In this document: positions 1 to 51,684 of the stretch, piece by piece | How the letters are laid out: each line of letters starts with the position of its first letter | How positions within the stretch are numbered: position 1 is the first letter of the stretch | Assembly (NCBI GenBank): GCA_965277715.1 | Contig: OZ255836.1 | Location: 1,664,001 to 1,728,000 of the forward strand | Direction of reading: 5' to 3' | Origin: Gammaproteobacteria bacterium | GTDB taxonomy: Bacteria; Pseudomonadota; Gammaproteobacteria; JBCCGL01 | DNA: 64,000 nt | Program-made: the position numbers and the translations under genes | The notes under the pieces: model-generated | What the model saw: the letters and a program-made list of their open reading frames with translations, nothing else | Database searches by the model: none | Told to the model about the DNA's origin: nothing

Positions 1-349
1 AAGCCAGAACCTACAGGGGTGCTTTGATAGTCGGCAATATAACGCTGTACCTTTTCTTCACACGCGGTCACCGTGCGATTCTGGAAGCTATGCGTGACCG
101 CCTTGGGCTTCACCTGTTCAGGAATGTACTTGTACTCTTGGCTTTCTGGATCAATGGCACGGCTGTTGAACTGTAGCGTCTTGTTACCGAACTTTTTGAA
201 GAAGGTATATTTCTTATGGTCCTGATACTTCGCGTTAGTACATGGGCAATAGAAGTCCTGTACAGGCGAGTATGAAGCCGGGTCAACATTCACGCCTTCT
301 GGCAACCGTGCCACCAGCTTGGTCACAATCTGCTTATAGTGTTCGGGTG
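1..349 (-). pseudogene. 5'-truncated ORF, possible primase/prim-pol fragment; runs off the window edge
   Basis: Manual translation gives a stop-free frame from the IS21 end to base 1 (PEHYKQIVTKLVARLPEGVNVDPASYSPVQDFYCPCT...). The D-x-x-S...Q-x-F-Y-x-P pattern recalls AEP prim-pol domains; this is inference only. Confidence 0.45.
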
Positions 350-435
350 TATTAAGTGACAATTATCTTGTCCGGTAGGTGACAATTATCCTGTCCGGTT
401 TCATGCTGGTACTTTTATAGCTCCTTGGAGATTAA

Positions 436-1941
436 GTGCCCGGTTTACGAATCCATCCCCGACAAGAGAAATTGTATATGAACTATCGAAACCAAAGCCT
501 TACACAAGAATCCGCAGCGGCTAAAGCGGGTATATCGAGTCGTAGTGGTCGTCGAATAGAGAAACAGGAACGACCTCACCAACCTCATCACTGGCGAACC
601 CGAGCTGACCCACTGGAAGCGGTCTGGAACTCGGAGTTAGTGCCGCTGCTGGAGAAGGAGTCGGGTTTAACCCCGATCACCTTGTTTGAGTATTTGGACG
701 ACCATTACCCCGGTGAGTATGGCCAGCGTATTATGCGTACCCTGCAAAGGCGGGTGAGTGATTGGAAAGCGCAATACGGCCCCGATAAGGCGGTTATCTT
801 TCGCCAGATAGCACAAGCAGGCCGTCAGGGGCTGTCAGACTTTAGCCATCCTAACGCTGCCATTACCCTTGGCGGCAAACCCTTTGCACATATGTTCTAC
901 CAATTTTGTCTGGCTTACAGTGGTTGGCGTAGCGTGACGGTTATTCAAGGCGGGGAGAGTTATGCGGCATTGAGTAGCGGTTTGCAAAATGCCCTTCATC
1001 AATTAGGCGGTAGTCCATTAGAGCACCGCACTGACAGCCTCAGTGCAGCGCGTAATAATCACACTAACCGATGGACCGATGCTTACCAGGCTTTATGTGC
1101 CCATTATGGGCTGGAACCCACGGTCAACAACCAAGGCAAAGGGCATGAAAACGGTGCGATTGAAGCCCGCCATGGTGTGTTAAAACGGCGTTTATCACAA
1201 GCCTTAAAATTACGCGGTTCCAACGATTTTGCTACCTTGGAAGCCTATACCCGGTTTGTCCAAAAAGTGGTCGATAAGCTCAACCGTCGTTTTGCCACAG
1301 GCTTGAGCGAAGAAAAAGCCGTATTGCAAGCTTTGCCCCATCACCGGTTTAGCGATTACCACTCCCTCACCGTCAAAGTCACACGCACCTCGACCATCGC
1401 CGTTAAACACGTGCTGTATAGCGTTCCTTCCCGCCTTATTGGAAAAGCCTTGCACATACACCTTTACCATGACCGTTTGGAAGGCTTTATCGGTCAGGCC
1501 AAGGTGGTGGAACAACCGCGACACTATACCAAGCCAGGCGAAACCCGTGCACGACAAATTGACTGTCGCCATGTTATTCGTGCCTTATCCGCCAAGCCTC
1601 AAGCCTTTCGTTGTCTGAATTACCGCGATCAGCTATTCCCCACGTCTACCTACCAGACGCTGTGGTCTATTGCGGATACGTATTTTGACTCTCGGGAAGC
1701 CTGCAAGTGGATGGTTCGGGTACTGTACATTCACTGTTTCTATGATAATCAACTCGATACCAAACTCTGGCAACAATGGCAGCAAACGCAAAAACTGCCC
1801 CCACGTCAGCAACTCGACAAAAAGGCGCTCCATACCACCGATCACCCACAACAACCTGGGGTACAGCAACATGATCTGAGCCAATACAATCAACTCCTCG
1901 CCGCCACCAAAACGGAGGCACACCATGTCCACAACACTTGA
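436..1941 (+). CDS. istA: IS21 transposase IstA
   Basis: N-terminal HTH, DDE core (SDF...RTDSLSAA...HENGAIE), 501 aa, overlaps istB. Confidence 0.93.
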   Translation: MPGLRIHPRQEKLYMNYRNQSLTQESAAAKAGISSRSGRRIEKQERPHQPHHWRTRADPLEAVWNSELVPLLEKESGLTPITLFEYLDDHYPGEYGQRIMRTLQRRVSDWKAQYGPDKAVIFRQIAQAGRQGLSDFSHPNAAITLGGKPFAHMFYQFCLAYSGWRSVTVIQGGESYAALSSGLQNALHQLGGSPLEHRTDSLSAARNNHTNRWTDAYQALCAHYGLEPTVNNQGKGHENGAIEARHGVLKRRLSQALKLRGSNDFATLEAYTRFVQKVVDKLNRRFATGLSEEKAVLQALPHHRFSDYHSLTVKVTRTSTIAVKHVLYSVPSRLIGKALHIHLYHDRLEGFIGQAKVVEQPRHYTKPGETRARQIDCRHVIRALSAKPQAFRCLNYRDQLFPTSTYQTLWSIADTYFDSREACKWMVRVLYIHCFYDNQLDTKLWQQWQQTQKLPPRQQLDKKALHTTDHPQQPGVQQHDLSQYNQLLAATKTEAHHVHNT

Positions 1942-2695
1942 ACTACTGTTACGTGAACTCAAACTACCCCGCTTTGTTCAGTACTACCCTGATACGCTAC
2001 AACAAGCTCAGGAACACCAATGGAGCTATCTACAGTTCCTCGAAACCTTGTGTGAGAAAGAACGGGCCGATCGTTATACCCGCCGTGTGCAGAACTGGAA
2101 TCGGGAAGCAAAATTGCCTCTCGGTAAAACCCTCTCCTCATGGTGTAGTGATCCGTTGTCTGTGACCGTACAGGATAGGCTACAAGCTCTTTGGCAGGAT
2201 ACCTCCTGGGTGGAACAGGCTCATAACCTGCTGCTGTTTGGTCCCAGTGGTATAGGCAAAACCCATATCGCCTGTGCTATCGGCTACGCTATGATTGAAC
2301 AAGGGGTTCGAGCCCGCTACTTCAAAGCCATGGAACTGGTACAACAGCTTCAACAGGCTAAAAAACAGCTCGAACTGATGAACGCCATGACCCGTCTGGA
2401 CAAGTACCGCATGATCATTGTTGATGATATCGGTTACGTCAAAAAGTCCGAAGCGGAAACTTCCGTTCTCTTTGAATTTATTGCGCACCGATACGAAAGC
2501 GCCAGCCTCATCATTACTGCTAACCAGCCTCTTAGCGAATGGGATAGTATTTTTCCCGACAGTATGATGACCGTGGCTGCCGTTGACAGGCTTATTCACC
2601 ATGCCGCCATTGTCGAAATGAACGGCGACAGCTATCGGAAAAAACAACAAATTAATAGCTTGAAAACACAGGGGAAAACAACCTCCCTTTTGTGA
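1925..2695 (+). CDS. istB: IS21 helper ATPase IstB
   Basis: Walker A GPSGIGKT, Walker B IIVDDIGY, AAVDRLIHH motif. Confidence 0.95.
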   Translation: MSTTLELLLRELKLPRFVQYYPDTLQQAQEHQWSYLQFLETLCEKERADRYTRRVQNWNREAKLPLGKTLSSWCSDPLSVTVQDRLQALWQDTSWVEQAHNLLLFGPSGIGKTHIACAIGYAMIEQGVRARYFKAMELVQQLQQAKKQLELMNAMTRLDKYRMIIVDDIGYVKKSEAETSVLFEFIAHRYESASLIITANQPLSEWDSIFPDSMMTVAAVDRLIHHAAIVEMNGDSYRKKQQINSLKTQGKTTSLL

Positions 2696-2751
2696 CAACT
2701 AACCGGACAACTTAATTGACGCCTATCGGACAAAATAATTGACACTTAACA

Positions 2752-2830
2752 GTTTGCAAACAGTTGAAGCGTAAATTCATTGGTATTGAAATCGACAATG
2801 AATATTTTGCACTTGCTAAGGAACGTATCA
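2752..2830 (+). pseudogene. C-terminal remnant of a beta-class N4/N6 DNA methyltransferase, truncated by IS21
   Basis: Reads VCKQLKRKFIGIEIDNEYFALAKERI from the first base after the IS. This is the typical segment following the FxGSG motif of beta-class MTases. Confidence 0.7.
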
Positions 2831-3369
2831 ATCAAAACACTGAAATCAGCAACCAAAGAAAAAACCACGTGGGTCACGAGCTTGGCTATCAACGCGGCTC
2901 AAAGCTGGCTGGTGACTTTGACACTATATTCACTGACAAGCCGGGGCGTGATGATGAACTACGACACTTGAAGGACGTGGTGGGAAATGGGTCACACGTA
3001 ACAGTGAATTCCTACATTGAATTTGGTGACAGCATGGAATCACTGTTTAAGAACGTGCGGCACGTTATCGCCAAGGGCGGCAGCATAGAATTTTTAGCTG
3101 AAGGTCATCGGTTCGACAATGAAGAACAGCTTGCCCTATTCGAATCATTGACACAGTTCAGCAAGCAGGCTGCACGGACCAAACTTGAACGCGGTCTTGA
3201 ACGTAGTAAGAAAAACAATGGTCGCCCCAGTCAGTTCACAAAGTCACAAATGAAGACCATGGTCAGACAGGCGCGCAAGATCAAAACCAAGGAAGACCGT
3301 GAAGCATTCTGTGAAAAGCATGGTATTAGCCGCCCATACAGCTACAAGCTGGCGAAAATGACCGGTTAA
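2764..3369 (+). CDS. Serine resolvase/invertase-like protein with C-terminal HTH (degenerate); possible own GTG start at 2869
   Basis: GYQRGS (cf. GYARVS), IFTDK, VTVNS, KGGSIEFLAE, GRP linker and HTH-like tail HGISRPYSYK. The DRLxR motif is replaced by IEFGD. Confidence 0.65.
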   Translation: MKRKFIGIEIDNEYFALAKERINQNTEISNQRKNHVGHELGYQRGSKLAGDFDTIFTDKPGRDDELRHLKDVVGNGSHVTVNSYIEFGDSMESLFKNVRHVIAKGGSIEFLAEGHRFDNEEQLALFESLTQFSKQAARTKLERGLERSKKNNGRPSQFTKSQMKTMVRQARKIKTKEDREAFCEKHGISRPYSYKLAKMTG

Positions 3370-3427
3370 ACACACCTTCAACAACACGTATAAGCCATAT
3401 ATGCCAAAAACCGTGAAAATCCGTATG

Positions 3428-3706
3428 TGAAGAATTTTGATTCTGAAAAACGGTTGAAAAACCCTGTTTTTAAATCGGGTGAAGAATAACGACCACCAGC
3501 CCCATGAAATAGCCTGTTTCACCACGGTCACACCATGTAATTAACCGTTAGACCCTGATTACCTGAAGAATGACACCGCGAAATATAGCTACATCGTCAG
3601 GACCAGCGTTTTCACCATCCCCCAGCATCAAAAAACCCGGTTTATCTGAAGAATTATAAAAATCACCGGGTCACCTTGCGTCACCATTTCCCAAAATTTG
3701 AAGAAT
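3428..3706 (+). repeat. Five direct TGAAGAAT octamers in a non-coding region
   Basis: Copies start at 3428, 3480, 3564, 3647 and 3699 (spacings 52, 84, 83, 52); several TCACC motifs are interspersed. Confidence 0.8.
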
Positions 3707-3818
3707 CTTGGTATCACAACCATTTTGCTAGTTACGTGATGCTATTTGTGCCTGTTTGTAACCGACGAAAACGCCTTTGTATAAATATAAAGACAACAAA
3801 CAAAGGAGTTTCCCGAAA

Positions 3819-4043
3819 ATGAACAATTATCTTGATGCCGCCGGTATTACACATTATGAACGCGCAATCTTAACAGCCCTTGCAACTGCCACAACGGGCG
3901 CTGAATTAGTAACCGCATTACAGACTTTTGACGTGACCCTTCAGGCGGATCGACTGCGCCAGTCATTAACGAATGTGCAAAAAAGCTGCGCGCTCAATAC
4001 TGCACGTGCAACTATCGTTAATGACGCATTGGCGGCACTGTAA
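3819..4043 (+). CDS. Hypothetical protein (74 aa, Ala/Thr-rich), first gene of the island operon
   Basis: AAGGAG RBS before ATG 3819; TAATG coupling to the next ORF. Confidence 0.75.
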   Translation: MNNYLDAAGITHYERAILTALATATTGAELVTALQTFDVTLQADRLRQSLTNVQKSCALNTARATIVNDALAAL

Positions 4044-4252
4044 TGGATGACCTACAAGTCTACCGGGATGCGTTAGCCAAGAATGGCGGCAATGCTAAGG
4101 AATCGGCGGCAAAGTACATCGCAGAAAGTGAATGGGATGATGTGGACATTCCAAAGTTCTGCATGGCGCTGAAAAACCGTCTTTTGTATGAACGTCTTTC
4201 CGAACATGAAAAACGATTGACCCGTGAAGTAATCCGTCAACTAGGGGGCTAA
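4043..4252 (+). CDS. Hypothetical protein (69 aa)
   Basis: Stop/start overlap with the upstream ORF; plausible helical protein. Confidence 0.7.
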   Translation: MDDLQVYRDALAKNGGNAKESAAKYIAESEWDDVDIPKFCMALKNRLLYERLSEHEKRLTREVIRQLGG

Positions 4253-4256
4253 TTCT

Positions 4257-4661
4257 ATGATTAGTGAGTTAACAGCACTTGATAAAGGGGACCCAGCAGT
4301 AAAGGAAAAGGTGATTGCTGAAATCAACCGCCTATATCGACGCCGGGATTTCCTACTTGTTCGCTATACATGGCAGGAAATGAAAGACGTGGCTTCCTAT
4401 CTACGGGACAACCACGGGTTCCTTCAGGGGGCAACGCCTGAATACGTTGACGCTATTTTGAAGCCATACAACGAAATTGAGTACGCGCACATTTTCGCCA
4501 TCGTTAAGGCATTGGGTACAGGTGAAGACCTAAAGCCCTTGCGTGATGCTGTACGGGCAGACTCGCAACGTATGCGCCGCATGGTGAAGAAACTGACCCG
4601 TGAAGACAAAAATACCGGCGGATTCATGAAGAAAATTAAGAATAAAATAGGAGTGAAATAA
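4257..4661 (+). CDS. Hypothetical protein (134 aa)
   Basis: AGGGGG RBS, tight operon spacing, basic C-terminus. Confidence 0.75.
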   Translation: MISELTALDKGDPAVKEKVIAEINRLYRRRDFLLVRYTWQEMKDVASYLRDNHGFLQGATPEYVDAILKPYNEIEYAHIFAIVKALGTGEDLKPLRDAVRADSQRMRRMVKKLTREDKNTGGFMKKIKNKIGVK

Positions 4662-4714
4662 AATGTTGAAATGTTGGTCTGAACTTAAAGCAGGCAGTGA
4701 AAAGCTATTCAATG

Positions 4715-6255
4715 CATCAGTGTTTCAAAATTCCTGGCTGTCGAGGTTTTAAATGCCTCACTAAGCTATGCATAATAGTTCTAAGGGACTTTCTTGTCAT
4801 TATTGCATTTTGCAGAGAGCGGATGGTGAATGAGCATATACGGGTAATTCTAGCGTAAAAAAAACAATGGATTAACAAAGCCGCCTTTTTTCTGGGCAAT
4901 TTGTTGTCTCTTATCAAGCATTTTAGTGTATTTTTTATCAGATGGATGAATACATTCCAGGTTCTTTGTTTTTGATATTTCTTCAAAAATACGCATGATA
5001 TTATAGGCCATGGCAGTAAAACGCATTTGACTGTTCAGCGCATTCAGGTTTGAAGACCAGGCTTTTCTTTCGGTGAAATCACTTTTGCTATTGTTGAATG
5101 ATTTTTCTATCGTCCAACGCTTGTAATAGAGCATAGCAATAGTGCCTGGGTTAATTGACTCTGGTAGCGTTGAAATAAATTGATGTAATTGACCTGTTTC
5201 TGGGTCGCGGTATTTAACAATATGAAATTGGACCTTTTTATTTTTATATACACTATAGCCTTCAACCCCTGTATTAATTTCACTACCCTGGTCATAGGGT
5301 ATAGAGTTGACAAAAGTTGCAACTGCATTTTCTTTGAGTACTGAAATCATAAAATTCTGATGCTGTTTTTGCTTTTCCCACCATGCATAATCAGTCACTG
5401 CCTTATCGTATATATAGAGATGCTTTTGCCAAGTCTCTTTTTCGCCACAACGTTGTTCAATATAAGAACGTAACGCGGGTATTTCCTGGTGCCGTTCAGT
5501 ACCGTTAGTCACGACACAAAGTGGTCTTAGAAGTCCATTTCTGAGGTTCAAGGCATGAATAAAGCCTGCTGCGAAGACGTTGCCCTGACGATTTTTCTCT
5601 GTGTGACAAGCATGCTGTATAAAATGACCATCAGCTGCTTCTACTCGATATTCTTCAAGTTCAGGAAATTGTTTTAAATAATCAATGTCCAAAGAAGATA
5701 ATTTCTCACTTTGCAGTTGATAGCTTTGCTTTTCCATGGCTTGCATCATCTTCATCCGTCTTGTCGACTTCAATGCGTTAAAATAGCTTGAATGACAAAT
5801 TGTCTCGTCGTATATTTCATCCGTAACCTGTAGATAGTGACGACCACTATGTACAAGACTTATACAGCGAAGTAACCCATGGCGAGAAAAAGCTACGTCA
5901 TCAATGGCATCGCATGATCTTTTCCATAAAGGGAAGCGTTCAGCAGCAATTGCTTTTTCCATACTTATTTTACAGTGTTCGGTGATATATTCTTCAACGG
6001 TCATCATTTCGTTCATATTAAATTTGCCCATTTAATCAGATATTAAATGGGTATTTTAAAAAAAATTCTGCTGGTGAATGCAAGTGTTTTTTTGGATAAT
6101 TTTATTTATTTTATGAATTATAAAGCGTGTTATCGGTTTATAAAAAAACAGTACAAATATTATAAAAAATACTATTTGTAGCTTATGGTGGCTCTTGTCA
6201 GGTGTTATTCATTGCGTTATTAGCTTCCTGGTAGGATTCTAGTGGTACACCCATG
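4715..6255 (-). mobile_element. IS4-family insertion sequence with 8-bp target duplication ATTCAATG
   Basis: ATTCAATG at 4707-4714 and 6256-6263; imperfect terminal repeats CATCAGTGT... / CATGGGTGT... (reverse complement); AT-rich. Confidence 0.88.
4850..6031 (-). CDS. IS4-family DDE transposase
   Basis: AADGH, IYDKA and the YREK signature YYKRWTIEKSFNNSK. Confidence 0.88.
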   Translation of the reverse strand: MGKFNMNEMMTVEEYITEHCKISMEKAIAAERFPLWKRSCDAIDDVAFSRHGLLRCISLVHSGRHYLQVTDEIYDETICHSSYFNALKSTRRMKMMQAMEKQSYQLQSEKLSSLDIDYLKQFPELEEYRVEAADGHFIQHACHTEKNRQGNVFAAGFIHALNLRNGLLRPLCVVTNGTERHQEIPALRSYIEQRCGEKETWQKHLYIYDKAVTDYAWWEKQKQHQNFMISVLKENAVATFVNSIPYDQGSEINTGVEGYSVYKNKKVQFHIVKYRDPETGQLHQFISTLPESINPGTIAMLYYKRWTIEKSFNNSKSDFTERKAWSSNLNALNSQMRFTAMAYNIMRIFEEISKTKNLECIHPSDKKYTKMLDKRQQIAQKKGGFVNPLFFLR

Positions 6256-6725
6256 ATTCAATGAATGTTTAGCCGCCGCAAATAAAGAACCGGGGTCTGA
6301 AGGCTAGCTTGTTCTACGGACTTGGAACGAACTGGCTAACACGTCTAAGTCCATTCGAAACAATATGTTTCAGATTGATAGCCAGAAAATCGCGGCACAG
6401 CTAACAAGTATGGAATGGTCATATGTTGAAGGCATGGTAAACACTACACGCACTAGCCATATTGAAGCACGTAAGGCACAGCATAAGACTATGGCGCAAC
6501 GTAGTGAACGATTTTTGAAATGGTTCTTGGACAATAATGCCGCGCTGGTTGAACTGGCAGAAATGGAAACAAAGATCAAAGGTCGTCGTATGCCTAGTGA
6601 ATCATCAACTGAATGGGCGAACCTTAGCCAACAACTGTTCAACTAAGAATTCACGTACACTGAATTCAAGTTAATAAATTTTTGGTTGTTATATCCAGTG
6701 TGCGCGAATGGCGGGGTGGCGATTG

Positions 6726-8216
6726 TCACCCCGTTTTTTTATCTTCCTTTTCTTCTTGAACAGCGTAGAAGTAATTCAGTGCGTCCTTATCGCGGTCACT
6801 GAAATTTTCAGTAAGAGTGCTGGCTTCGTCATCCATTTCTAATTCTTCAAGTTCGTGCAATAACTTAGCAAGTTGCTTGCCGCGTTGAAGTTGTTCGCCA
6901 GAATCATATTCATATGGAACAGGCTTCAACTTTGGCTTTGGTGGTTCGTCGGGATCGCCCCCTGATTCTGCTTGTTCCTTTTTTCGTAAACGGTCATTAA
7001 ACTTTTGATATTCTTCAAAGTCCAAAGGCGTTATGTGATTGGTATAATGATCTTCAATCATCTTTGGACTGTTACCACAGTTTTTAGCAATTTCGTTTAC
7101 GTTAACACCTTCAAGGAAGCGGTTTGAAATGAAGGAATGACGAAGTGATTCAAAGGTTCGATATTCACCTTTCTTTTCACCACGAATATCCTGTTCTTCC
7201 AGTATTTGAACGAAGCGCGAACGGTTATTTTGATCAAATAGTTTTTCATTAGAATTGCGGTCAAGCCCCCGGCGGGTCAAGATGCGCTTGTAAACAGTGC
7301 CAGAACCTTTAACCCCGACTGTCACCCGTGATTTAGTTTTTGCGCCATCTTCATCGGGAACATTGATTACAGTGACTTGATATACTTTTCCATTCTCACG
7401 AACACCTTTTAGCCGTACATCCTTACAGCGAATAATTCCGAGTTCTTCAGGGCGCAACCCGGTGTATAACATCAAATGTACTCGGTCACGCAATGATTCA
7501 GCACTGTACAGGTCTGTTTTTCGCGTCTTCCCCTGAATATTATCGTCAAGGGCTGTTAATAGCTTATGCTGTTCACGAATGCTAAACCATATACGCTTGG
7601 CATTGTTGTTATTGAATTTCAGACCATCTTTCAAAGTTGGTAGGCGATAATCTTCAACCAGTTCGTCTGCCACATTCAGACAGGTTCGAAGTGAACCCTT
7701 GATTAGTCGAACATAATTTTTGCTTATATCAGGCTTACGCTTATACAGGTCAGCAAGATAGTCCTTCCACATTTTGCTATTAACATCGGTGACCGGTGTG
7801 GTCCCAAAAAATGGCTGAATTTCTAACAGGTAGTTCTTTTCGATAGTGTTCCAATGGCTTTTGGTGTTGTGACCCATGCCAATACGAACACGATAGCTTT
7901 CCGTAGCGCGGTGGAAGCAATCATCAACCGTGACTTGACCGGAAAGGCTAACCCTTTCACCTTTACCAATAGTTTGTAGAAATTCTTCATAAGCTATTGC
8001 TGCAATTTTACAGGCTTCCTTGAAATCCTTCTTTCCAGTGGATTTACGATTGTCTGTGCCTTTGCCAGCACTACTAAGTTCAGTCTTGATAAACCAACGA
8101 TATTGCCAAACGTTGCCACGTTTGTGCATCGTGATTTCGTCGTAAAGGGGATGGTCTGCCATGGGGCTGGAATCCTTACACACATGTTGAAAATCGGTCA
8201 TCGTTAAAGATAACAC
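6726..8216 (-). CDS. Tyrosine recombinase/integrase (true start may be ATG 8162)
   Basis: LYTGLRPEEL (R), KTK (K), SLRHSF (HxxR-region variant), CGNSPKMIEDHY (catalytic Y); N-terminal arm-binding-like region; adjacent to tRNA. Confidence 0.92.
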   Translation of the reverse strand: MLSLTMTDFQHVCKDSSPMADHPLYDEITMHKRGNVWQYRWFIKTELSSAGKGTDNRKSTGKKDFKEACKIAAIAYEEFLQTIGKGERVSLSGQVTVDDCFHRATESYRVRIGMGHNTKSHWNTIEKNYLLEIQPFFGTTPVTDVNSKMWKDYLADLYKRKPDISKNYVRLIKGSLRTCLNVADELVEDYRLPTLKDGLKFNNNNAKRIWFSIREQHKLLTALDDNIQGKTRKTDLYSAESLRDRVHLMLYTGLRPEELGIIRCKDVRLKGVRENGKVYQVTVINVPDEDGAKTKSRVTVGVKGSGTVYKRILTRRGLDRNSNEKLFDQNNRSRFVQILEEQDIRGEKKGEYRTFESLRHSFISNRFLEGVNVNEIAKNCGNSPKMIEDHYTNHITPLDFEEYQKFNDRLRKKEQAESGGDPDEPPKPKLKPVPYEYDSGEQLQRGKQLAKLLHELEELEMDDEASTLTENFSDRDKDALNYFYAVQEEKEDKKTG

Positions 8217-8249
8217 AAAGTGTGCAAGAATGTGTAAGTGGTGTGTAAG
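8175..8249. promoter_or_regulatory. Putative integrase arm-type binding sites
   Basis: Direct repeats TGTGCAAG (8221), TGTGTAAG (8231), TGTGTAAG (8242) plus an inverted copy CTTACACA (8175). Confidence 0.6.
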
Positions 8250-8377
8250 GCTTTCTGCTCGCTTCCGGGGATCAAATTTGACCGATTTTCAGCCCCGAAA
8301 AGGTGTCTTTTTTGACCCTGTTTTAGGTCGTTTTCAATAAATCAAAAAGTCATGTAACTTAATGATTTTACTAAAGT

Positions 8378-8464
8378 TGGTGCTCGGGGCGGGAATCGAA
8401 CCCGCACGATATTTCTATCGCAAGATTTTAAGTCTTGTGTGTCTACCAATTTCACCACCCGAGC
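8378..8464 (-). tRNA. tRNA-Leu(UAA), complete, element-side copy
   Basis: Full cloverleaf: acceptor GCTCGGG/CCCGAGC, anticodon arm CAAGA-CTTAAAA-TCTTG, long variable arm CGATA-GAAA-TATCG, T-arm, encoded CCA. Confidence 0.95.
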
Positions 8465-8475
8465 ATAATAAGGAC

Positions 8476-8517
8476 GGATTTTAAGTCCCTTGCGTCTACC
8501 AATTTCGCCATCCGGGC
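8476..8517 (-). pseudogene. leuZ: 5' half of the host tRNA-Leu(UAA) (leuZ position), broken after the anticodon loop; att junction
   Basis: GCCCGGATGGCGAAATTGGTAGACGCAAGGGACTTAAAATCC is followed by unrelated GTCCTTATTAT; it lies directly after tRNA-Cys as in the conserved glyW-cysT-leuZ operon. Confidence 0.88.
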
Positions 8518-8532
8518 AGCGATGATTATCAA

Positions 8533-8606
8533 TGGAGGCTGAGACCGGAATCGAACCGGTGTACACGGCTTTGCAGGCCGCTGCATAACCACTCTGCCAC
8601 CCAGCC
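8533..8606 (-). tRNA. cysT: tRNA-Cys(GCA)
   Basis: 74-nt cloverleaf, anticodon loop CTGCAAA, CCA end. Confidence 0.96.
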
Positions 8607-8700
8607 ATTAACAAATCAGAGTAACACTAATTAACCGCGACAATCCAAACCTTATCGAGGCGGTAAAACAACAAGGCATATAGGGTGTATATGTCGCCAT

Positions 8701-8732
8701 AAAAAAACCCCGGTTAAGTGCCGGGGTTTTTT
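8701..8732 (-). terminator. Intrinsic terminator-like hairpin between tRNA-Gly and tRNA-Cys
   Basis: A7-CCCCGG-TTAAGTG-CCGGGG-T6. Confidence 0.7.
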
Positions 8733-8736
8733 AATC

Positions 8737-8812
8737 TGGAGCGGGAAACGAGATTCGAACTCGCGACCCCAACCTTGGCAAGGTTGTGCTCTACCAGCTG
8801 AGCTATTCCCGC
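8737..8812 (-). tRNA. glyW: tRNA-Gly(GCC)
   Basis: 76-nt GCGGGAATAGCTCAG...TTGCCAA...TCCA downstream of pgsA. Confidence 0.97.
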
Positions 8813-8822
8813 AGAGGGCGGC

Positions 8823-8850
8823 ATTCTAGCCAATGCTGCCATTATGTCAA
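8823..8850 (-). promoter_or_regulatory. Sigma70 stable-RNA promoter of the tRNA cluster
   Basis: TTGACA-16 bp-TAGAAT followed by GC-rich discriminator GCCGCCC. Confidence 0.8.
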
Positions 8851-8891
8851 TACTGTTGGCCGGTATTTCTCTAAATCTCTCTCAATCCCCC

Positions 8892-9458
8892 TTACTCATC
8901 GGCAACGCCCGCTTTGCGCGCTGCATTCAAGTACAGACACATCGAGTACAACGTCAACCCCGCAGCGACAACCAGCGCACAACTGCCCCAAAAATACATG
9001 GATTGGCCTGCAACGGGCAGTTGATACAACATCAGGAATATCGCCAACATCTGCAATGTCGTTTTCACTTTGCCAATCCAACTGACAGAAACCAACTGTT
9101 TTTTACCCAGCTCTGCCATCCACTCACGCAGGGCGGAGATAACAATTTCCCGGCTGATAATAATACACGCCGACAGGGTCAACCAGGTTTGTGAGTGAGT
9201 GGAAACCAGCAATAGCAAAGCGGTAACAACCATTAGTTTGTCCGCCACCGGATCGAGAAATGCACCAAATGCCGATTGTTGTTGTAGCTTTCTGGCCAGG
9301 TAACCATCCAGCCAATCGGTTATACCCGCCAGTGCAAACACAACGGCGCACGCAGGTCGCGCCCAGTCGGTGGGAATATAGAAAGCCAACACGATGATAG
9401 GCAGCAGAGCGATGCGCAGCAGTGTCAGTACAGTGGGCAGTGTGATGTGTATTTGCAT
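8892..9458 (-). CDS. pgsA: CDP-diacylglycerol--glycerol-3-phosphate 3-phosphatidyltransferase
   Basis: TDWLDGYLAR...GAFLDPVADK motif; uvrC-pgsA-tRNA synteny. Confidence 0.96.
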   Translation of the reverse strand: MQIHITLPTVLTLLRIALLPIIVLAFYIPTDWARPACAVVFALAGITDWLDGYLARKLQQQSAFGAFLDPVADKLMVVTALLLLVSTHSQTWLTLSACIIISREIVISALREWMAELGKKQLVSVSWIGKVKTTLQMLAIFLMLYQLPVAGQSMYFWGSCALVVAAGLTLYSMCLYLNAARKAGVADE

Positions 9459-9485
9459 GTTAATCGTCAGTTTGTACCGGGTTAT

Positions 9486-11318
9486 TCACGCGGGCGAATC
9501 GCCGTGAAATTTTTCATAAATTAATTTGGCCAGTGGTTGGCTAATGCCAGGCACTGCGGCCACGTCTTCAATACCGGCACGTTGTATACCCTGCATACCG
9601 CCAAAATGTGCCAACAGGTTGCGCCGCCGTTTTGGCCCCAGACCGGGTATGCCCTCAAGCACACTGCGTTTGCGTTGTTTGTCCCGTTTATTGCGGTGAC
9701 TGGTAATCGCAAAACGGTGCGCTTCGTCGCGTATTTGCTGAACCAGATGCAAAGCGGGTGATTCTTTACCCAGTACCAATTGTTCAGCGGTCTCCGCTAC
9801 AACCAGCACTTCTTCACCGGCAATGCGCTCGGGGCCTTTGGCGACGCCGACCAAGTATATCTCGTCCAGTTGCAATTCGTTGAGGACTTCTTTGGCAACA
9901 CTCACCTGCCCTTTGCCACCATCGACAAACAGGATATCCGGCAGGTTGGCGTTTTCTTTGATAGCGCGTGTATAACGACGCGTCAGTGCCTGACGCATCG
10001 CGGCATAGTCGTCCCCTGGGGTAATATCGGTGATAGAAAAACGGCGGTAGGCTTGCTTCATGGGGCCTTCCGCGTTGAATACAACGCAGGAGGCGATGGT
10101 GCCCTCCCCGCGTGTATGGCTTATATCAAAACATTCCATACGGCCTGGCAGTTCATCGAAACTGAGCACACTGCGCAGGTTTTCCAGCCGCTGGGCGTTA
10201 CCGGCACGGCTGGATAGGTGGACTGCCAGCGCCGATTCGGCATTGTGCCTGGCCATATCAATCCAGCGGGCGCGCTCACCGCGCATTTTGTCGCTGATAA
10301 GCACTTTGCGCTGGCAGCGCTCTGACAACACTCCTTCCAGCACCTCGCTCCCCATCACCGTATGGCTTAACAGGATTTCTTTAGGGACTTCATTGTGTAA
10401 ATAAAATTGGGTTAAGAAGGCGTACAGCACTTCTTCAGGGGTGGCATCAGTCGGCATTCTTGGATAGAAGGGCTTATTGCCTAAGTTCATACCGTTGCGA
10501 ATAAAAAACACCTGGATACAGCTTCGCCCGCCTTTGAGCGCACAGGCAACCACATCGATATTACCCTTATCACTGCTGACGTATTGCTTTTCCGCCACGG
10601 CTTTGATGTCGGCAATCTGATCCCGCAGCCGGGCGGCTTTTTCAAAATCCAGTTGTGCGGCGGCACTTTCCATGTCGGCCACCAATTGCAGGATCACTTC
10701 ATTGTCTTTGCCGGATAACAGCAACTGGGTGTGCTCGACATCCTGCTGGTAGCGCTGTTCGCTGATCAAGCCGACACAAGGTCCCGAGCAACGTTTGATT
10801 TGGTACTGCAAACAAGGGCGCGAGCGGTTGCTAAAGTAAGAGTCGACGCACTGCCTGACCTGAAACAGTTTCTGTACGTGCCGCAGTGATTTCTTTACCG
10901 CCCCCGCGTTAGGATAAGGGCCAATGTATTTACCCGGTTTTTTTTTGCCACCGCGATGGTAGGCCAGGCGCGGGTACTGGTCTTTTGACGAGATGTAGAT
11001 ATACGGGTAACTCTTATCGTCGCGCAGCAATATGTTATAGCGCGGTTTAAATTTTTTTATCAGGTGGTTTTCGAGAATCAGCGCCTCGGATTCGGTATTG
11101 GTCAGGGTCACCTCCACCCGTTCGATCTGTGCGACCAGCGCCCGGGTCTTCGGCGAACCGGGGTCCTTGCGAAAATAGCTGCTCAAGCGCTTGCGCAGGT
11201 TCCCGGCCTTGCCGACGTAGATAACCTCATCACCCGCATTCAGCATACGGTAGACACCGGGTGTCGTGCTCACAGTGGATAAGAAGTGGCTTGCATCAAA
11301 CACCGGCTTATCGTCCAT
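9486..11318 (-). CDS. uvrC: Excinuclease ABC subunit C
   Basis: GIY-YIG (PGVYRM...IYVGKA), ECFDISH, RDEAHRFA, HhH tail. Confidence 0.98.
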   Translation of the reverse strand: MDDKPVFDASHFLSTVSTTPGVYRMLNAGDEVIYVGKAGNLRKRLSSYFRKDPGSPKTRALVAQIERVEVTLTNTESEALILENHLIKKFKPRYNILLRDDKSYPYIYISSKDQYPRLAYHRGGKKKPGKYIGPYPNAGAVKKSLRHVQKLFQVRQCVDSYFSNRSRPCLQYQIKRCSGPCVGLISEQRYQQDVEHTQLLLSGKDNEVILQLVADMESAAAQLDFEKAARLRDQIADIKAVAEKQYVSSDKGNIDVVACALKGGRSCIQVFFIRNGMNLGNKPFYPRMPTDATPEEVLYAFLTQFYLHNEVPKEILLSHTVMGSEVLEGVLSERCQRKVLISDKMRGERARWIDMARHNAESALAVHLSSRAGNAQRLENLRSVLSFDELPGRMECFDISHTRGEGTIASCVVFNAEGPMKQAYRRFSITDITPGDDYAAMRQALTRRYTRAIKENANLPDILFVDGGKGQVSVAKEVLNELQLDEIYLVGVAKGPERIAGEEVLVVAETAEQLVLGKESPALHLVQQIRDEAHRFAITSHRNKRDKQRKRSVLEGIPGLGPKRRRNLLAHFGGMQGIQRAGIEDVAAVPGISQPLAKLIYEKFHGDSPA

Positions 11319-13117
11319 CAGTGCGTATCGGCAATGTGTTCAACCAGCAGTTGCAGGCTTCGCTGACCACGAAATACATTGACATCCAGTTTGTAGACCA
11401 TATCGACATCGCCCTCACCCAAATATTCACCCGTCTGGTTAAAGGCGATGGCATCGACCACCAGGTTGGGGTTATCAACAGGGTGAACACACATTTTCAG
11501 GTGGCTCTGACCGACAATGCGCTGCTGGGTGCGCTTGAATACGCCCTGGAACAGCGGCTCGGGAAAGTGTTGGCCCCACGGTGCAGCTAATCGCAGTGCC
11601 TGCGCAAATTCGAGCGAGAAACAATCTGTATCCAGCACGCCATCGGTATAAAGAACCGGCTCCAGTGCCTCGCCTTTGAGCTGCAGGTTAACACCCTCGG
11701 TAAACGCCCCGGCAAAGGTATCCAGATCAGTCGTTTCAAGCGTCAGGCCCGCCGCCATCGCGTGGCCACCAAATTTAATAATCAACCCCGGATACTGGCT
11801 GTCTACGTAGGCGATGGCGTCGCGGATATGCACCCCCGCCATCGAGCGTGCCGAGCCTTTTAAGTGGCCCTGTGCATCCTCCGTAAAGATAATCGTGGGC
11901 CGGTGTACCGACTCGCGCACACGCCCGGCCAGGATACCGATAACCCCTTCGTGCCACTCGGGGTTATACAGGCAAATACCCGCAGGAAACTGCCGCTGTT
12001 GGTTCTCCGCCAGCCACGCTTCCAGTAACACATTGGCCTGTTCGCGCATATCGGTTTCAATGGCGCGTCGCTCGCGGTTGAGTGCATCCAGCTTGACCGC
12101 TATCTCCCGGGCCTCCAGGTCATTCTCTGCCAGCAGGCAGGCAATCCCGAGCGACATATCCTCTAACCGACCGGCCGCATTCAAACGCGGGCCGACCGCG
12201 AAAGCCAGATCGCTGGCCACAGCGTCGCTGGCACTGCGCCCACTAACGGCTAAAAGACCGGCAATACCACAGCACATTTTCCCGGAGCGGATGCGGCGCA
12301 AACCTTGTTCAACCAGAATGCGGTTATTGCTGTCCAGAGGTACCACATCGGCCACTGTACCCAGCGCGACAAGATCCAGGTAGGCCGCTGTGTTTGGCAC
12401 AGCAATACCGTGTTGATCAAACCAGCCAAGTGCTTTCAGATGCGTGCGCAGGGCGGACAGCAGGTAAAAAATCACCCCGACACCCGCCAGGTTTTTACTC
12501 GGAAACGGATCGCCATTGAGATTGGGGTTGACAATCACATTGGCATTGGGCAGTTGTGCGGGTGGCAGGTGGTGATCGGTAATCAGTACATCAATTGCCA
12601 ATGCGCGTGCCGCTGCAACCCCCTCGACACTGGCGATACCGTTATCGACCGTGATCAATAAATCCGGTTTTAGCCCGGCAACACTATCGACCACTTCAGG
12701 ATTTAGGCCATAGCCAAAGCGAAACCTGTCTGGCACAAAATAATTTACCCGTTGCGCACCCAGTGCGCGCAATAGTTTCACCGCAAGCGCGGTGCTGGTG
12801 GCACCATCGGCATCGTAATCGCCGACGATAACAATGCGTTGCTGCTGTTGAATAGCTTCAGCCAGCAGCGATACCGCCGCATCAATACCCCCTAGGGCAC
12901 TGGCCGGGTGTAGATTTGCCAGTGAGGGATCCACTTGCCGAGGCTCTTCAACACCGCGTGCCGCTAATAACCGGGCAATGGTCGGGTGTGGGTGCAATGA
13001 CAGCCAATCGTTCTGATTATTATTCTGGCCGCTATTCTGGTCATTATTCTGGCCATTATCGTGGCCACCACCTTTAAAGTCTGGGCGTTGTACTATTTTA
13101 AGTGGGGGCTGGCTCAT
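11318..13117 (-). CDS. recJ: Single-stranded-DNA exonuclease RecJ
   Basis: GDYDADG, ITVDNG, ITDHH, GTVAD, GGHAMAAG motifs. Confidence 0.97.
   Translation of the reverse strand: MSQPPLKIVQRPDFKGGGHDNGQNNDQNSGQNNNQNDWLSLHPHPTIARLLAARGVEEPRQVDPSLANLHPASALGGIDAAVSLLAEAIQQQQRIVIVGDYDADGATSTALAVKLLRALGAQRVNYFVPDRFRFGYGLNPEVVDSVAGLKPDLLITVDNGIASVEGVAAARALAIDVLITDHHLPPAQLPNANVIVNPNLNGDPFPSKNLAGVGVIFYLLSALRTHLKALGWFDQHGIAVPNTAAYLDLVALGTVADVVPLDSNNRILVEQGLRRIRSGKMCCGIAGLLAVSGRSASDAVASDLAFAVGPRLNAAGRLEDMSLGIACLLAENDLEAREIAVKLDALNRERRAIETDMREQANVLLEAWLAENQQRQFPAGICLYNPEWHEGVIGILAGRVRESVHRPTIIFTEDAQGHLKGSARSMAGVHIRDAIAYVDSQYPGLIIKFGGHAMAAGLTLETTDLDTFAGAFTEGVNLQLKGEALEPVLYTDGVLDTDCFSLEFAQALRLAAPWGQHFPEPLFQGVFKRTQQRIVGQSHLKMCVHPVDNPNLVVDAIAFNQTGEYLGEGDVDMVYKLDVNVFRGQRSLQLLVEHIADTH
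13011..13058. repeat. Four imperfect 12-bp tandem repeats in the recJ 5' region
   Basis: TTCTGATTATTA TTCTGGCCGCTA TTCTGGTCATTA TTCTGGCCATTA, encoding NGQN-NDQN-SGQN-NNQN. Confidence 0.75.
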
Positions 13118-16565: not shown

Positions 16566-17564
16566 TTACGCAACGGCAAGTGCTTCCACCGCCGCCCAAA
16601 GCGCTGCATCAATCGATACATCAACGCCATTGGAAAAGGGCTTACCGGAACCGGGTAGCCGTGCATTAGGCTGTGCCGATACTGCCTGTACCAGGCAATC
16701 CAAACGCTGCCAAAAGTCCTCACCGGCAAACAGGGTCGGGTCGAGGAGAAAATAGAACTGCCCGAGATCGTGTGGTGGGCCTTCCGGGGTTTTTAGCGGT
16801 GGCGCACTGACACTGTTTAGCGAGCCGGTCAGTGCCGCCGCCAGTACCTCGGCCATCAGACCAAACCCATAACCTTTATAGCCTCCCGCCGAAACCAACG
16901 AGCCTGCCAGCGCCGCCTTGGGGTCATCAGTCGGCTGGCCATTTTTATCCACGGCCCAACCCAGTGGGATTTTCTCACCCGCTGCCGCCGCAACGCGAAT
17001 TTTACCAATGGCAATCGCGCTGGTGGACTGATCAAACTGGAACGCGACGCCTCCCGCTTGCGCCGGCACGGACATGGACATTGGGTTAGTACCCAGCACC
17101 GCTTGGGTGCCACCCGGTGGCGACACACAAGCCGGTGCGTTGGTCATGCCGATACCAATCAAACCCGCCTGAGCAATCTGTTCAGTGAAATACCCCATAG
17201 AAGTACAGGTGTGGGAGTGGCAAATCGCCAAGGCGCAGTTGCCGTGTTTTTTTGCCACGTCAACCGCCATGCCGATACCCCGATCAAACGCGGGCTGGGC
17301 AAAACCATACTGCGCATCAACCTGGACAGCGGCTGTTTTTGGCTGGCTAACCAGTGGTTCTATGCGACCATTGACCCGCCCACTGCGCAGTTGTACGCAG
17401 TAGCTCTCCAGATAATAAAGGCCACAGATCAGGTTCCCCGTCGCTTCGGCTTTGCGCACCGCCCGTGCCACGGATTCGGCTATCCAGCGGTCGGCCCCAT
17501 GTGCGACCAGTGCCTGGGTGGTTTTAGCCTCGATATCATCCAGGCGTACGGTGGTTTTAGTCAT
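16566..17564 (-). CDS. Ldh_2 family oxidoreductase (malate/L-lactate/sulfolactate dehydrogenase, ComC-like)
   Basis: VDAQYGFAQPA, GTNP, GGYKGYG, RLPG motifs. Confidence 0.85.
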   Translation of the reverse strand: MTKTTVRLDDIEAKTTQALVAHGADRWIAESVARAVRKAEATGNLICGLYYLESYCVQLRSGRVNGRIEPLVSQPKTAAVQVDAQYGFAQPAFDRGIGMAVDVAKKHGNCALAICHSHTCTSMGYFTEQIAQAGLIGIGMTNAPACVSPPGGTQAVLGTNPMSMSVPAQAGGVAFQFDQSTSAIAIGKIRVAAAAGEKIPLGWAVDKNGQPTDDPKAALAGSLVSAGGYKGYGFGLMAEVLAAALTGSLNSVSAPPLKTPEGPPHDLGQFYFLLDPTLFAGEDFWQRLDCLVQAVSAQPNARLPGSGKPFSNGVDVSIDAALWAAVEALAVA

Positions 17565-17672
17565 TTTGTTCGTTTTCCCATTTTTAGTTTCCCCGGCACA
17601 GTGGTTTTAGTCATGCGGTTATTTTGGTTTTGTGGCAATTTGGCAGCACAATGCGTCACGCCACTACGGTGA

Positions 17673-19067
17673 GTGGAGTATGCCGGTGCGACTGATATGT
17701 TTCAATTGACCTGTAGCAACGTGACTGACATGCTTGGTCTTATGCCGCAATCTACACAACAAACCACTCAACAGAAAGTACTCCCCAATTCGCTATGGGC
17801 CGCAACAGCCGAACCAGCGCCAGAGACGTTATCGCTCAATCGGGATATCAATGTCGATGTCGCCATTGTCGGGGCCGGATTTAGCGGCCTGCGAGCCGCG
17901 CTGGTACTGGCAGAATCAGGTCTTCAGGTGGCGGTATTCGACGCAGGGGATATTGGCTGGGGCGCATCCGGGCGCAATGGCGGGCAGGTTAACCCTATTG
18001 GGCATGAGCCACCCAGTGTCATCGCGCAGCGATGGGACAAGCAATATGGTGGCGATTACGCCCAACGCTTTACAGCACTCATCACCCAATCCGCTGATGA
18101 AGTGTTTGATGTTATCAAACACTATGCGATCCGCTGCGATGCCGAGCAAAATGGCTGGATTCGCGCCCTGCATAGCAATATCGCCAGGCCAGCATTTGAA
18201 ACCCTGTACCGGGATTGGCGCGATGCCGGTGCCGACCTACACTGGATTGAGCCTCAAACACTTGAGCAGCTAAGTGGTGCAAAAGGCTATAAAGCGGGCT
18301 GGATTGCCAGGCGTGGTGGCTCAGTGCAACCTTTATCTTATGTACGTGGCCTGGCACGCGCCGCGCAGTCAGCGGGGGCAAATATCTATACCCACATACC
18401 GATTGAACACCACAGGCGCGTATCAGGAAAGTGGCAGTTAACATCGCGACAGCGAAAAATCACTGCCGATCAGGTGTTACTGTGCACGAATGGCTACACC
18501 GATGATTTATACTCACAACTTCGCGAGAGTATTGTGCCCGTTGTCAGTATCCAGGCGGCGACGCAGGTACTCAGCGAGGCACAGTGCCAGGCCATACTGG
18601 TTAACCGACATACCTTTGCAGACACGCGCCGGGTTATTTTTTACTTTAGAAAAACCGGGGAAAATCGGCTGGTATTTGGCAGTGCGGGGATTGCCGATGA
18701 GATACCCGGTACTGCCGAAAGGCAGCGAATTTTAAATGGCTTAAATACCGTTTATCCACAGTTCCCCACGCTCAAAATAGACTATATATGGGGTGGTAAA
18801 ATCGCCGTTACACAAGATCATTTACCCCACATTCACCAACCGGCCCCCGGCATTTACGCTGGCCTGGGTTGTAATGGGCGCGGTGTTGCCCTGTCGACTG
18901 TAATGGGCAGGCTGCTCGCTGAGCTAGTACTGGGTAAAGATAAAAAAGCACTGGCGATTCCTATCACTACAATTAAAAAATACCCCTTCCATCGCTTTCA
19001 CCGCACAGGCATTAAAATCGCGGTACACTGGAAGGAATTTCAAGACAACAGAGAGGCAAATGCCTAA
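17673..19067 (+). CDS. FAD-dependent oxidoreductase, DAO/PuuB-like (start may be 17742)
   Basis: SLWAATA, GAGFSG, GASGRNGG, GCNGRGVA. Confidence 0.85.
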   Translation: MEYAGATDMFQLTCSNVTDMLGLMPQSTQQTTQQKVLPNSLWAATAEPAPETLSLNRDINVDVAIVGAGFSGLRAALVLAESGLQVAVFDAGDIGWGASGRNGGQVNPIGHEPPSVIAQRWDKQYGGDYAQRFTALITQSADEVFDVIKHYAIRCDAEQNGWIRALHSNIARPAFETLYRDWRDAGADLHWIEPQTLEQLSGAKGYKAGWIARRGGSVQPLSYVRGLARAAQSAGANIYTHIPIEHHRRVSGKWQLTSRQRKITADQVLLCTNGYTDDLYSQLRESIVPVVSIQAATQVLSEAQCQAILVNRHTFADTRRVIFYFRKTGENRLVFGSAGIADEIPGTAERQRILNGLNTVYPQFPTLKIDYIWGGKIAVTQDHLPHIHQPAPGIYAGLGCNGRGVALSTVMGRLLAELVLGKDKKALAIPITTIKKYPFHRFHRTGIKIAVHWKEFQDNREANA

Positions 19068-50823: not shown

Positions 50824-50917
50824 TATCCACTATTAAGGTTATATAAAAGCGGCCAATGCTGTTCATAACCGAACACAAAACTTACTTTATCAACACTACC
50901 TATCCGGAGATTTGAAA

Positions 50918-51391
50918 ATGAAGAGAACCCAGCAAGGTTTTACCCTTATTGAGCTAATGGTTACCGTTGCAATTGTCGGTATTTTATCAGCAGTAGCAAT
51001 ACCTTCTTATCAAGGCTACACTACTCGCGCAAAAATAACTGAAGGCTTGGCCATAGCTGATGGCATCAAGAAAGAACTGACTATTGGCCTTGCTGAAAAC
51101 GGCATGACAAGAGTTGATTCTATAGCAGATGTATTTAATACTGACGTAACAGCAGGTAACGTACTTACTGACATTGTAACTGCTGCATCTGTCTCTGATA
51201 CCACCGGAGTAATCAGTATAACTTTCGGTGGAATACCTGCTCTTGGACCAACTAACAATGTCATCACTTTTGTTCCTCAAATCGGTGGTCAAGCTATATC
51301 CGTTACCAATGATACGGGCTCAGTTAGATGGAATTGCGCTACAGCAACAACATTAGTTGAAGATAAATATTTACCCAGTGATTGCCAATAG
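50918..51391 (+). CDS. pilA: Type IVa major pilin
   Basis: [10 protein letters not shown] prepilin motif, C-terminal Cys pair. Confidence 0.95.
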
Positions 51392-51466
51392 AACCCGGTA
51401 TCAAGTGCACAGCTCTTTTGATATATTATATAAGTTAATAAATTTTTAACCAAAAGATTACAAGTT

Positions 51467-51504
51467 AAACACCAGTTGGTATAAATACCAACTGGTGTTT
51501 TTTT
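51467..51504 (+). terminator. Intrinsic terminator after pilA
   Basis: AAACACCAGTTGGT...ACCAACTGGTGTTTTTTT. Confidence 0.8.
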
Positions 51505-51684
51505 GAAGGCGCAAGAATAGAGGTAAAAGGCCAAACCAGAGTGACGCTTCTTAAAGCACAAGTACATGAAAATAGCTAATAAATATTACGCGACGAGGCA
51601 TAAGGAACACGAGTAAAAGTTTTCCTATTGTGTATACTTTACAAGCACTTATCCATTACTTAACAGCAAAAAGTATATACTAAT

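Follow-up and report, generated by a model that had tools for sequence, protein, structure and literature searches.

What becomes of a host when an integrative element cuts a tRNA gene and does not rebuild it? This question is raised by a locus in a sponge-associated gammaproteobacterium, located in a 64,000-nt stretch of contig OZ255836.1 (assembly GCA_965277715.1, positions 1,664,001 to 1,728,000), hereafter called the window. There, the gene for tRNA-Leu(UAA) at the leuZ position ends shortly past its anticodon loop and is followed, after a spacer, by a complete and different tRNA-Leu(UAA) gene. The arrangement of half gene, spacer and complete gene was confirmed as real. We consider it probable, with a chance of roughly three in four, that an integrative element broke the host gene by way of a short core, and that a tRNA gene of its own, placed in line, replaces the host gene. 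All positions refer to the minus strand unless stated otherwise, and the features at the junction are as follows.

8476..8517, minus strand: 5' half of the native tRNA-Leu(UAA) gene, 42 nt, on the host side of the attachment junction (attL), read from the sequence
8477..8487, minus strand: GACTTAAAATC, 11 nt, made up of the last part of the anticodon stem, the loop and 2 nt past it; putative common core and crossover region, of presumed extent
8465..8475, minus strand: element-side spacer GTCCTTATTAT, 11 nt, between the break and the new tRNA (sequence, fold)
8378..8464, minus strand: complete island-borne tRNA-Leu(UAA) gene (ARAGORN, Rfam)
8163..8377, minus strand: non-coding element DNA, 215 nt, from the tRNA to the integrase gene (int), with blocks conserved in contig L095
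6726..8162, minus strand: tyrosine integrase, 478 amino acids (Pfam PF00589, PHROG 1)

The half, 8517..8476, reads GCCCGGATGGCGAAATTGGTAGACGCAAGGGACTTAAAATCC and comprises the 5' strand of the acceptor stem, the D arm, the 5' strand of the anticodon stem (AGGGA), the loop CTTAAAA, and then TCC of the 3' strand. The cut follows AAAATCC, after which the window continues with GTCC, as opposed to CTCGG in the native gene. Neither ARAGORN nor Rfam called the half a tRNA. At the junction, no 3' half is joined to it and GTCCTTATTAT is found instead, so that no hybrid functional tRNA is rebuilt. Motif searches revealed no tRNA 3' half within the window, and the island runs past its left edge. The first-pass annotation, which was made from the letters alone, had the leuZ-position gene end 3 nt past the anticodon loop and the whole arrangement span 8378-8517, and direct reading of the sequence returned exactly these coordinates.

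Judged by sequence comparison, the half is the host's own native gene and no chance match. In a set of 101 tRNA-Leu(UAA) genes from 144 loci, it was identical to the gene start at 42/42 positions in four genes, all from other gammaproteobacteria and at the corresponding position, and at least 40/42 positions agreed in 21. The gene order uvrC-pgsA-Gly-Cys-Leu(UAA) is common across gammaproteobacterial loci. The closest genome among those compared, G265 (UvrC 71% identical), ranked first of the 399 for which a sample of 400 genomes of the class gave a score, and the collection contains no other member of its family or order; it has an intact GCCCGG-type gene at the locus, 41/42 like the half, and no island. 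A scan for host relatives with pgsA gave a best match of 62% identity among the matches listed. The tallies over the 400 genomes include the unpublished G311, G145, G299 and G044 and the limited G251, on which no specific claim is built. A break at the 3' edge of the anticodon loop, caused by an island that did not rebuild the gene, is supported.

The complete gene is of another type. It has an acceptor stem GCTCGGG/CCCGAGC, an anticodon stem CAAGA/TCTTG, the discriminator A73 and an encoded CCA, and every pair is standard; it scores 61.9 bits with the Rfam tRNA model, next to 62.2 bits for cysT and 69.6 for glyW. Compared with the first 42 nt of this gene, the half has eight differences, all in the acceptor, D and anticodon stems, with identical D and anticodon loops. 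This agrees with the earlier description, in which a separate complete tRNA-Leu(UAA) with different acceptor, D and anticodon stems begins 11 bp downstream on the same strand. Its best identity to any of the 101 collected genes is 85%, and going by its sequence it is foreign to the host. Under the identity rules of Escherichia coli leucyl-tRNA synthetase (LeuRS), A73, the encoded CCA and the host-type D loop would fit charging with leucine. In the predicted fold of the 140-nt RNA covering half and full gene, the cloverleaf of the new tRNA is preserved, GTCCTT of the spacer can pair with AAGGGAC of the half to form a pseudo anticodon stem, and the loop is thereby flanked at the junction by the two arms of an inverted repeat. 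The motif GACTTAAAATC recurs within the new tRNA at 8434..8424, and its two matches in the window are thus the half and the new tRNA. It had been proposed that the altered anticodon stem may keep the new tRNA from being targeted again, but since the new gene keeps the 11-nt GACTTAAAATC of the broken one, the sequence alone gives no argument for such protection. Eight loci in viral contigs have the same anticodon arm; these are mostly phage tRNA clusters with other acceptor stems, and no donor was identified among them. They are not copies of the same element.

Could the assembler have wrongly joined two tRNA-Leu alleles that were present together in a mixed sample? The copies share a 14-nt stretch in the D loop and an 11-nt stretch in the anticodon loop, i.e. 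repeats of the kind that confuse assemblers, and the source habitat contains several strains. A mis-join would, however, create neither an 11-nt spacer nor a self-consistent full tRNA. The integrase protein is moreover found on a contig of 4,294,796 bases, which suggests a finished genome, and in run X8, another sample of an organism coded A, the island has a depth of 33.7-48.4, near the ~53 of the flank. An artefact of this kind is very improbable.

Evidence on the state before the break comes from the contigs of four runs, compared with window positions 1-12000. The host flank 8520-11300 is found in sponge metagenomes of three studies and in runs of organism A. In X1, record 6 (2686 nt, depth 21.7 vs 20.5 for the flank) follows the window over 8593..8476 with 0 differences and then diverges from it, and in X2, record 15 (2959 nt) does the same over 8784..8476, again with 0 differences. 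The flanks of the two differ from the window at 14 and 17 of 3234 positions, respectively. On the tRNA strand, the loose end past 8476 starts with CTCGGTT and finishes with CGGTTCGAGTC, and supplies what is missing of a tRNA-Leu from the anticodon stem onward, with a variable arm and a T arm; by hand comparison, its consensus is alike to the 3' half of G265 at ~27 of 30 letters. Because the X1 and X2 contigs leave the window at exactly 8476 and pass into a tRNA-Leu 3' half, near-identical strains from two other sponge metagenome studies carry an intact native gene. The first-pass annotation had reasoned that the half would be mere debris if island-free relatives had the GCTCGGG-type gene at this locus; the X1 and X2 strains as well as G265 carry the native type, and in the contigs without the island no full GCTCGGG-type tRNA was detected downstream of the native gene. 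The argument rests on contigs ceasing to match at 8476 and on their loose ends. The depth over the integrase stretch 6401-8000, which is 0 in X1 and X2 and ~0.4 in X4, was by itself counted as no finding.

The integrase encoded behind the new tRNA matches Pfam PF00589 with 30 bits (cut-off 27.1) and the PHROG 1 integrase family with an E-value of 4.7e-25. To judge from sequence, it belongs to a rare and divergent family: five homologues (P0002-P0006), with 40-59% identity and P0002 at 59%, were found among candidates scored from 5.8 billion proteins. Searches of other collections gave no relative among 59 pattern matches in genome contigs, no match in phage records, and none in viral contigs searched with alignment A1, i.e. 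the six sequences of the window integrase and P0002-P0006. Six plasmid records, in which identity did not exceed ~25% for most of the protein, were not taken as relatives. Out of six loci in metagenome contigs, five were rejected, with matches extending over 55-71 residues, and the locus L095 alone was a true relative. Tyrosine recombinases have the catalytic set R, K, H-x-x-R, H/W and Y, with G-H usual before the tyrosine. In A1, R237, K275, R341 and Y373 are invariant (positions assigned by eye), whereas a glutamate (E338) is found three residues before R341 in 6/6 sequences and G-N (N364) in 5/6, with G-T in the remaining one. Lacking both usual histidines of the catalytic pocket, the family looks like one with an atypical active site.

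L095 is a metagenome contig of 1691 nt, whose integrase is 40% identical to that of the window and 82% to P0006. It starts inside the anticodon stem of a tRNA-Leu(UAA), the end of which lies ~150 nt before the start of int. Between tRNA and int, L095 and the window share conserved blocks, including TTACACAC / GTGTGTAAG repeats, which are putative arm-type integrase sites or regulatory sites of int. The variable arm in L095 is of the type of the window's full gene, with compensatory changes (GATAGAAATATC vs GACAGCAATGTC). This context and the conserved blocks connect the integrase family with tRNA-Leu(UAA), and mark the DNA from the 3' part of the tRNA onward as element DNA. As for the layout of half plus full tRNA, which the first-pass annotation proposed to look for beside integrase homologues, L095 has a tRNA-Leu(UAA) beside its int, and any upstream half would lie beyond the start of the contig, out of view.

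The position of the integrase also bears on an origin of the break that is not site-specific, in which illegitimate recombination, a deletion or an IS (insertion sequence) rearrangement joined foreign DNA bearing a tRNA-Leu to the host, with the integrase present only incidentally. The island is indeed rich in IS elements, one of them multicopy, and there is no far-end att site in view. Such an event would nevertheless have had to hit the 3' edge of the anticodon loop, reportedly the classic crossover place of tyrosine integrases, and to leave an integrase gene only 215 nt away from the new tRNA and in the same orientation, in a family of which another member likewise sits beside a tRNA-Leu(UAA), and a junction with the form of an inverted repeat around the loop. 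We regard this origin as quite unlikely.

If instead an element entered through a short core, its attachment site before integration (attP) should have the core, the spacer and the complete tRNA in a row. We looked for a pattern consisting of an anticodon loop, 15-45 nt, a D loop and a second anticodon loop. It was found neither in the 400 sampled genomes of the class nor in the host loci L001-L094. In viral contigs there were 44 matches; most of them arose by chance in AT-rich DNA that precedes ordinary phage tRNAs, and two, L132 and L110, were of interest. L132 is a viral contig of 10.3 kb, with phage genes upstream, including a peptidase M15, and no tRNA half among them. At 1758-2075 it has an attP-like module with the anticodon-loop 13-mer GAGACTTAAAATC, the 14 nt GGTCGATTTGTCAT, a full tRNA-Leu(UAA) and ~200 nt, followed on the same strand by a tyrosine integrase of 459 amino acids. 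The junction motifs are alike (GACTTAAAATC-C-GTC for the window, GACTTAAAATC-G-GTC for L132), and the spacer GTCCTTATTAT is comparable with GGTCGATTTGTCAT. By analogy, L132 is suggestive of the form that the window element would have had before integration. Searches of viral contigs for relatives of the L132 integrase gave none besides L132 itself.

The other contig, L110 (14.3 kb), has at 6581-6681 an orphan 5' half of a tRNA-Leu(UAA), cut after AAAATC, and a convergent tyrosine integrase of 322 amino acids that ends ~45 nt beyond the half. No tRNA gene was found anywhere in the contig. A further integration of the breaking kind may have taken place here at the same position, any replacement gene being out of view.

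Both L095 and L132 are relevant to a course of events in two steps, where the GCTCGGG-type tRNA is what remains of an earlier, unrelated element that had broken the gene, and the present element then integrated into this tRNA in the normal way, rebuilding a hybrid, so that its integrase would be of the gene-restoring kind. The start of L095 in the anticodon stem is compatible with an ordinary attP carrying the 3' half alone, the window and L095 share features of the 3' half (variable arm), and the full tRNA contains the same 11-mer core. On the other hand, two events at one site are needed, and a break-and-replace event is still required. Pairing is perfect in both the acceptor stem and the anticodon stem of the full tRNA, the DNA between half and full gene contains no trace of another element, and the 11-nt spacer resembles that of the attP-like site in L132. 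Two such steps appear unlikely.

The preferred reading, a break and replacement by one element, can be set out as follows. An element with a tyrosine integrase would recombine with the host chromosome in the last gene of the glyW-cysT-leuZ cluster, tRNA-Leu(UAA), within the region of the anticodon loop. The attP would share a short core with the gene, about GACTTAAAATCC, and not the whole 3' half, and it is for this reason that the host gene would be left as a dead 5' half. The limit of identity on the right-hand side is AAAATCC, with an imperfect extension (native CTC vs element GTC). The pairing of spacer and half would mimic the inverted repeat of the anticodon stem as seen by the integrase. 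The complete tRNA of the element, 11 nt behind the core and co-oriented, would take the place of the host gene, presumably being part of the cysT transcript, from which RNase P and the enzymes of 3' processing release it, and would keep the decoding of UUA and UUG alive. The sole sigma-70-like promoter detected in 8100-8900 is at 8850..8823, upstream of glyW; between cysT and the new tRNA-Leu none was found, in a weak scan which also missed the hairpin and T-run seen by eye at glyW. As no promoter of its own was found and the cloverleaf is kept in the fold, the new gene is most likely co-transcribed with cysT and normally processed. The host 3' half would lie at the far end of the island, as GACTTAAAATCC-CTCGG...GGTTCGAGTCC...CCGGGCACCA. 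Precise excision would then restore the native gene, provided that the far end keeps this half. Losing only the end next to the tRNA would leave the host without a UAA decoder, if no other is present, and could then be lethal, as the first-pass annotation supposed.

As to the number of such decoders, the three nearest genomes gave one match each to a pattern of the tRNA-Leu(UAA) D arm and anticodon, which speaks indirectly for a single decoder. Locus L043 (Photobacterium) has at 17525-19016 tandem units of tRNA-Cys, tRNA-Gly and tRNA-Leu(UAA), with three identical Leu genes and one Leu(CAA). With these repeats, the UAA decoder is not single-copy in some gammaproteobacteria.

The core of the first-pass annotation, integration of an island that breaks the gene and replaces it, is thus supported by the half, the foreign full gene, the integrase and the island-free strains. 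Several points nonetheless weigh against it. The far end of the island, the second junction (attR) and attP all lie beyond view, so that both the extent of the core and a site-specific cause of the break are matters of inference. Activity of the integrase is uncertain, given that E338 and N364 replace the usual histidines. The visible 8.4 kb of the island has integrase, IS elements and small open reading frames (ORFs), with no phage or conjugation genes according to Pfam, NCBIfam and PHROG, and the element may be decayed. The loose-end consensus pools three contigs in X1 (agreement 0.68) and two in X2 (0.85), which makes its single letters uncertain, and a contig of the independent sample X8 bridging 8464-8476 was not among the listed pieces. 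L132, finally, is suggestive at most, since its integrase is barely related to that of the window (22% identity, pairwise E 0.006) and its 13-mer was chosen post hoc from the 44 pattern matches.

A wider proposal would make the element one of a distinct class in marine Gammaproteobacteria and their phages, with an attP in the form of a promoterless tRNA cassette, a minimal core 11-14 nt from a full tRNA, and an in-place allele swap under the host promoter. In view of the present data this remains a tentative idea, and rather a doubtful one.

The remaining features around the junction are listed below.

9486..11318, minus strand: uvrC (Pfam scan)
8892..9458, minus strand: pgsA (Pfam scan)
8737..8812, minus strand: host tRNA-Gly(GCC), glyW position (ARAGORN, Rfam)
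8533..8606, minus strand: host tRNA-Cys(GCA), cysT position, 15 nt upstream of the broken tRNA-Leu (ARAGORN, Rfam)
4850..6031, minus strand: transposase of the IS4-family DDE type (Pfam, NCBIfam)
436..2695, plus strand: IS21-family element, with istA at 436-1941 (NCBIfam transpos_IS21, 202.7 bits) and istB at 1925-2695 (Pfam IstB_IS21, 230 bits)
1..8377, no strand: visible part of the island, continuing off the left window edge (composition, motif searches)

In the gap between tRNA-Gly and tRNA-Cys, 8700-8736, a GC-rich hairpin followed by a T-run was seen by eye; it matches the terminator part of the Rfam Trp_leader model with 27 bits, below threshold, and G265 has a similar hairpin 3' of its tRNA-Gly. 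Should this hairpin terminate transcription, cysT and the Leu gene would need a promoter of their own, of which the scan found none. The tRNA cluster itself varies between genomes. In five pgsA loci (L004, L005, L024, L026 and L032), the tRNA-Leu(UAA) or the Cys-Leu pair is 0.4 to 4 kb away from the neighbour it normally has or is found on the opposite strand, which hints at other insertions in the same cluster. Farther to the right, 50912-56131 contains a gene cluster for type IV pili, with a pilin gene and genes like pilB, pilC and pilD, and coaE behind them; the GC content has a local dip (41%) at the pilin region. The right part of the window is otherwise made up of housekeeping genes, e.g. 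truB, infB, nusA, rimP and a tRNA-Met.

The island has a GC content of ~41-50%, compared with ~52% in the host part. No phage structural or lysis genes were found in its visible 8.4 kb. The IS4-family element is multicopy, as the summed contig depth over 4400-6400 is far above that of the flank in all four runs (175-226 vs ~20 in X1). Many contigs stop at 4715 and near 6257, which are probably the ends of this element. The stretch 1309-2720 is contained, with 11 differences and at chromosomal depth, in X1 and X4, where the tRNA-Leu is intact, and a related IS21 copy is accordingly present elsewhere in these strains. The ORF at 2764-3369 begins with 35 residues that resemble the C terminus of DNA methyltransferases (PHROG, NCBIfam), and its remainder matches a resolvase domain weakly, below the Pfam cut-off. 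Truncation or fusion may have produced this gene next to the IS21 element; an N-terminal methyltransferase part was not found in 1-450.

How does this locus compare with known systems? In the tRNA-dependent lysogeny of actinobacteriophages (Fionnbharth, LeBron, Gaia and others), as presented by Guerrero-Bustamante and Hatfull (mBio 2024, PMC10865867), tyrosine integrases use cores of 8-17 bp overlapping genes for tRNA-Lys, tRNA-Ile2 or tRNA-Leu(CAA). According to the same paper, attL rebuilds no tRNA, viable lysogens were shown experimentally to need a phage tRNA of the same isotype, and of integrases that are closely related to each other some rebuild the tRNA gene and others replace it. The first-pass annotation had mentioned compensation by element-borne tRNAs in actinobacterial phages, correctly according to that paper. 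The likeness to the window is considerable, i.e. a host tRNA gene entered by an element that encodes a tyrosine integrase, no rebuilt tRNA at the junction and a full tRNA borne by the element. Gaia in particular targets a tRNA-Leu(CAA) gene, and the window element likewise a tRNA-Leu gene, here UAA. There are also differences. The host is a sponge gammaproteobacterium, the integrase is of a different family, the visible part has no phage genes, and the case is known from sequence alone, unlike the actinobacteriophages with their experimentally shown need for the tRNA. The Fionnbharth tRNA is found elsewhere in the phage genome with a demonstrated promoter of its own, and that of Gaia downstream of int (PMC10865867), whereas the replacement gene in the window is 11 nt from the junction, co-oriented and without a promoter-like site found.

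Outside the actinobacteriophages, two further cases are described. In Sinorhizobium meliloti, a bioinformatic study (PMC11476347) reports that prophage-related sequences inactivate tRNA-Leu(UAG) and carry a replacement resembling that of another taxon. As in the window, a tRNA-Leu is inactivated by integration and a gene of the element substitutes for it, but the host is an alphaproteobacterium, the anticodon is another one, and the prophage is like a Mesorhizobium phage. For the prophage Lj965 of Lactobacillus johnsonii, the authors of PMC10865867 state in their discussion that its junction does not restore the tRNA and that it encodes a cognate tRNA; it is named there as a possible non-actinobacterial case, and the authors ask for a survey beyond actinobacteriophages. 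Its host is a Firmicute, unlike the gammaproteobacterium of the window. Genomic islands that target tRNA genes are collected in the Islander database (PMC4383910).

With ordinary tRNA islands the window island shares the integrase beside the tRNA, the crossover at the anticodon loop and a target gene that ends a tRNA cluster. Ordinary islands carry the 3' part of the gene and regenerate a hybrid, whereas this one leaves the half unjoined and supplies a whole gene. No report of a gammaproteobacterial break-and-replace integration was found in the open-access library searched, where the cases are from Actinobacteria, Lactobacillus and Sinorhizobium. The principle is already known, having been shown so far mainly for phages of mycobacteria; new are the host group, the rare and atypical integrase family, the visible part free of phage genes, and the in-line placement 11 nt behind the crossover.

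The locus offers a clear case of break and replacement in a gammaproteobacterium from sponges, of which strains with and without the island occur naturally and can be compared, and its layout is tidier than in the known cases, as the replacement tRNA stands in line inside the tRNA cluster of the host. If the layout is general, island finders that seek a regenerated tRNA and a displaced 3' fragment would mis-map such islands, the module of int, core and tRNA could serve as a compact integration tool, and foreign alleles can replace tRNA genes through integration. Lastly, if the distinct class of elements tentatively proposed above were to exist, an element would be freed from matching the 3' half of each host and could thereby have a wider host range, its tRNA-proximal end would be undeletable, and the installed allele, with its changed stems, could escape tRNA-targeting nucleases or renewed targeting by the same integrase.

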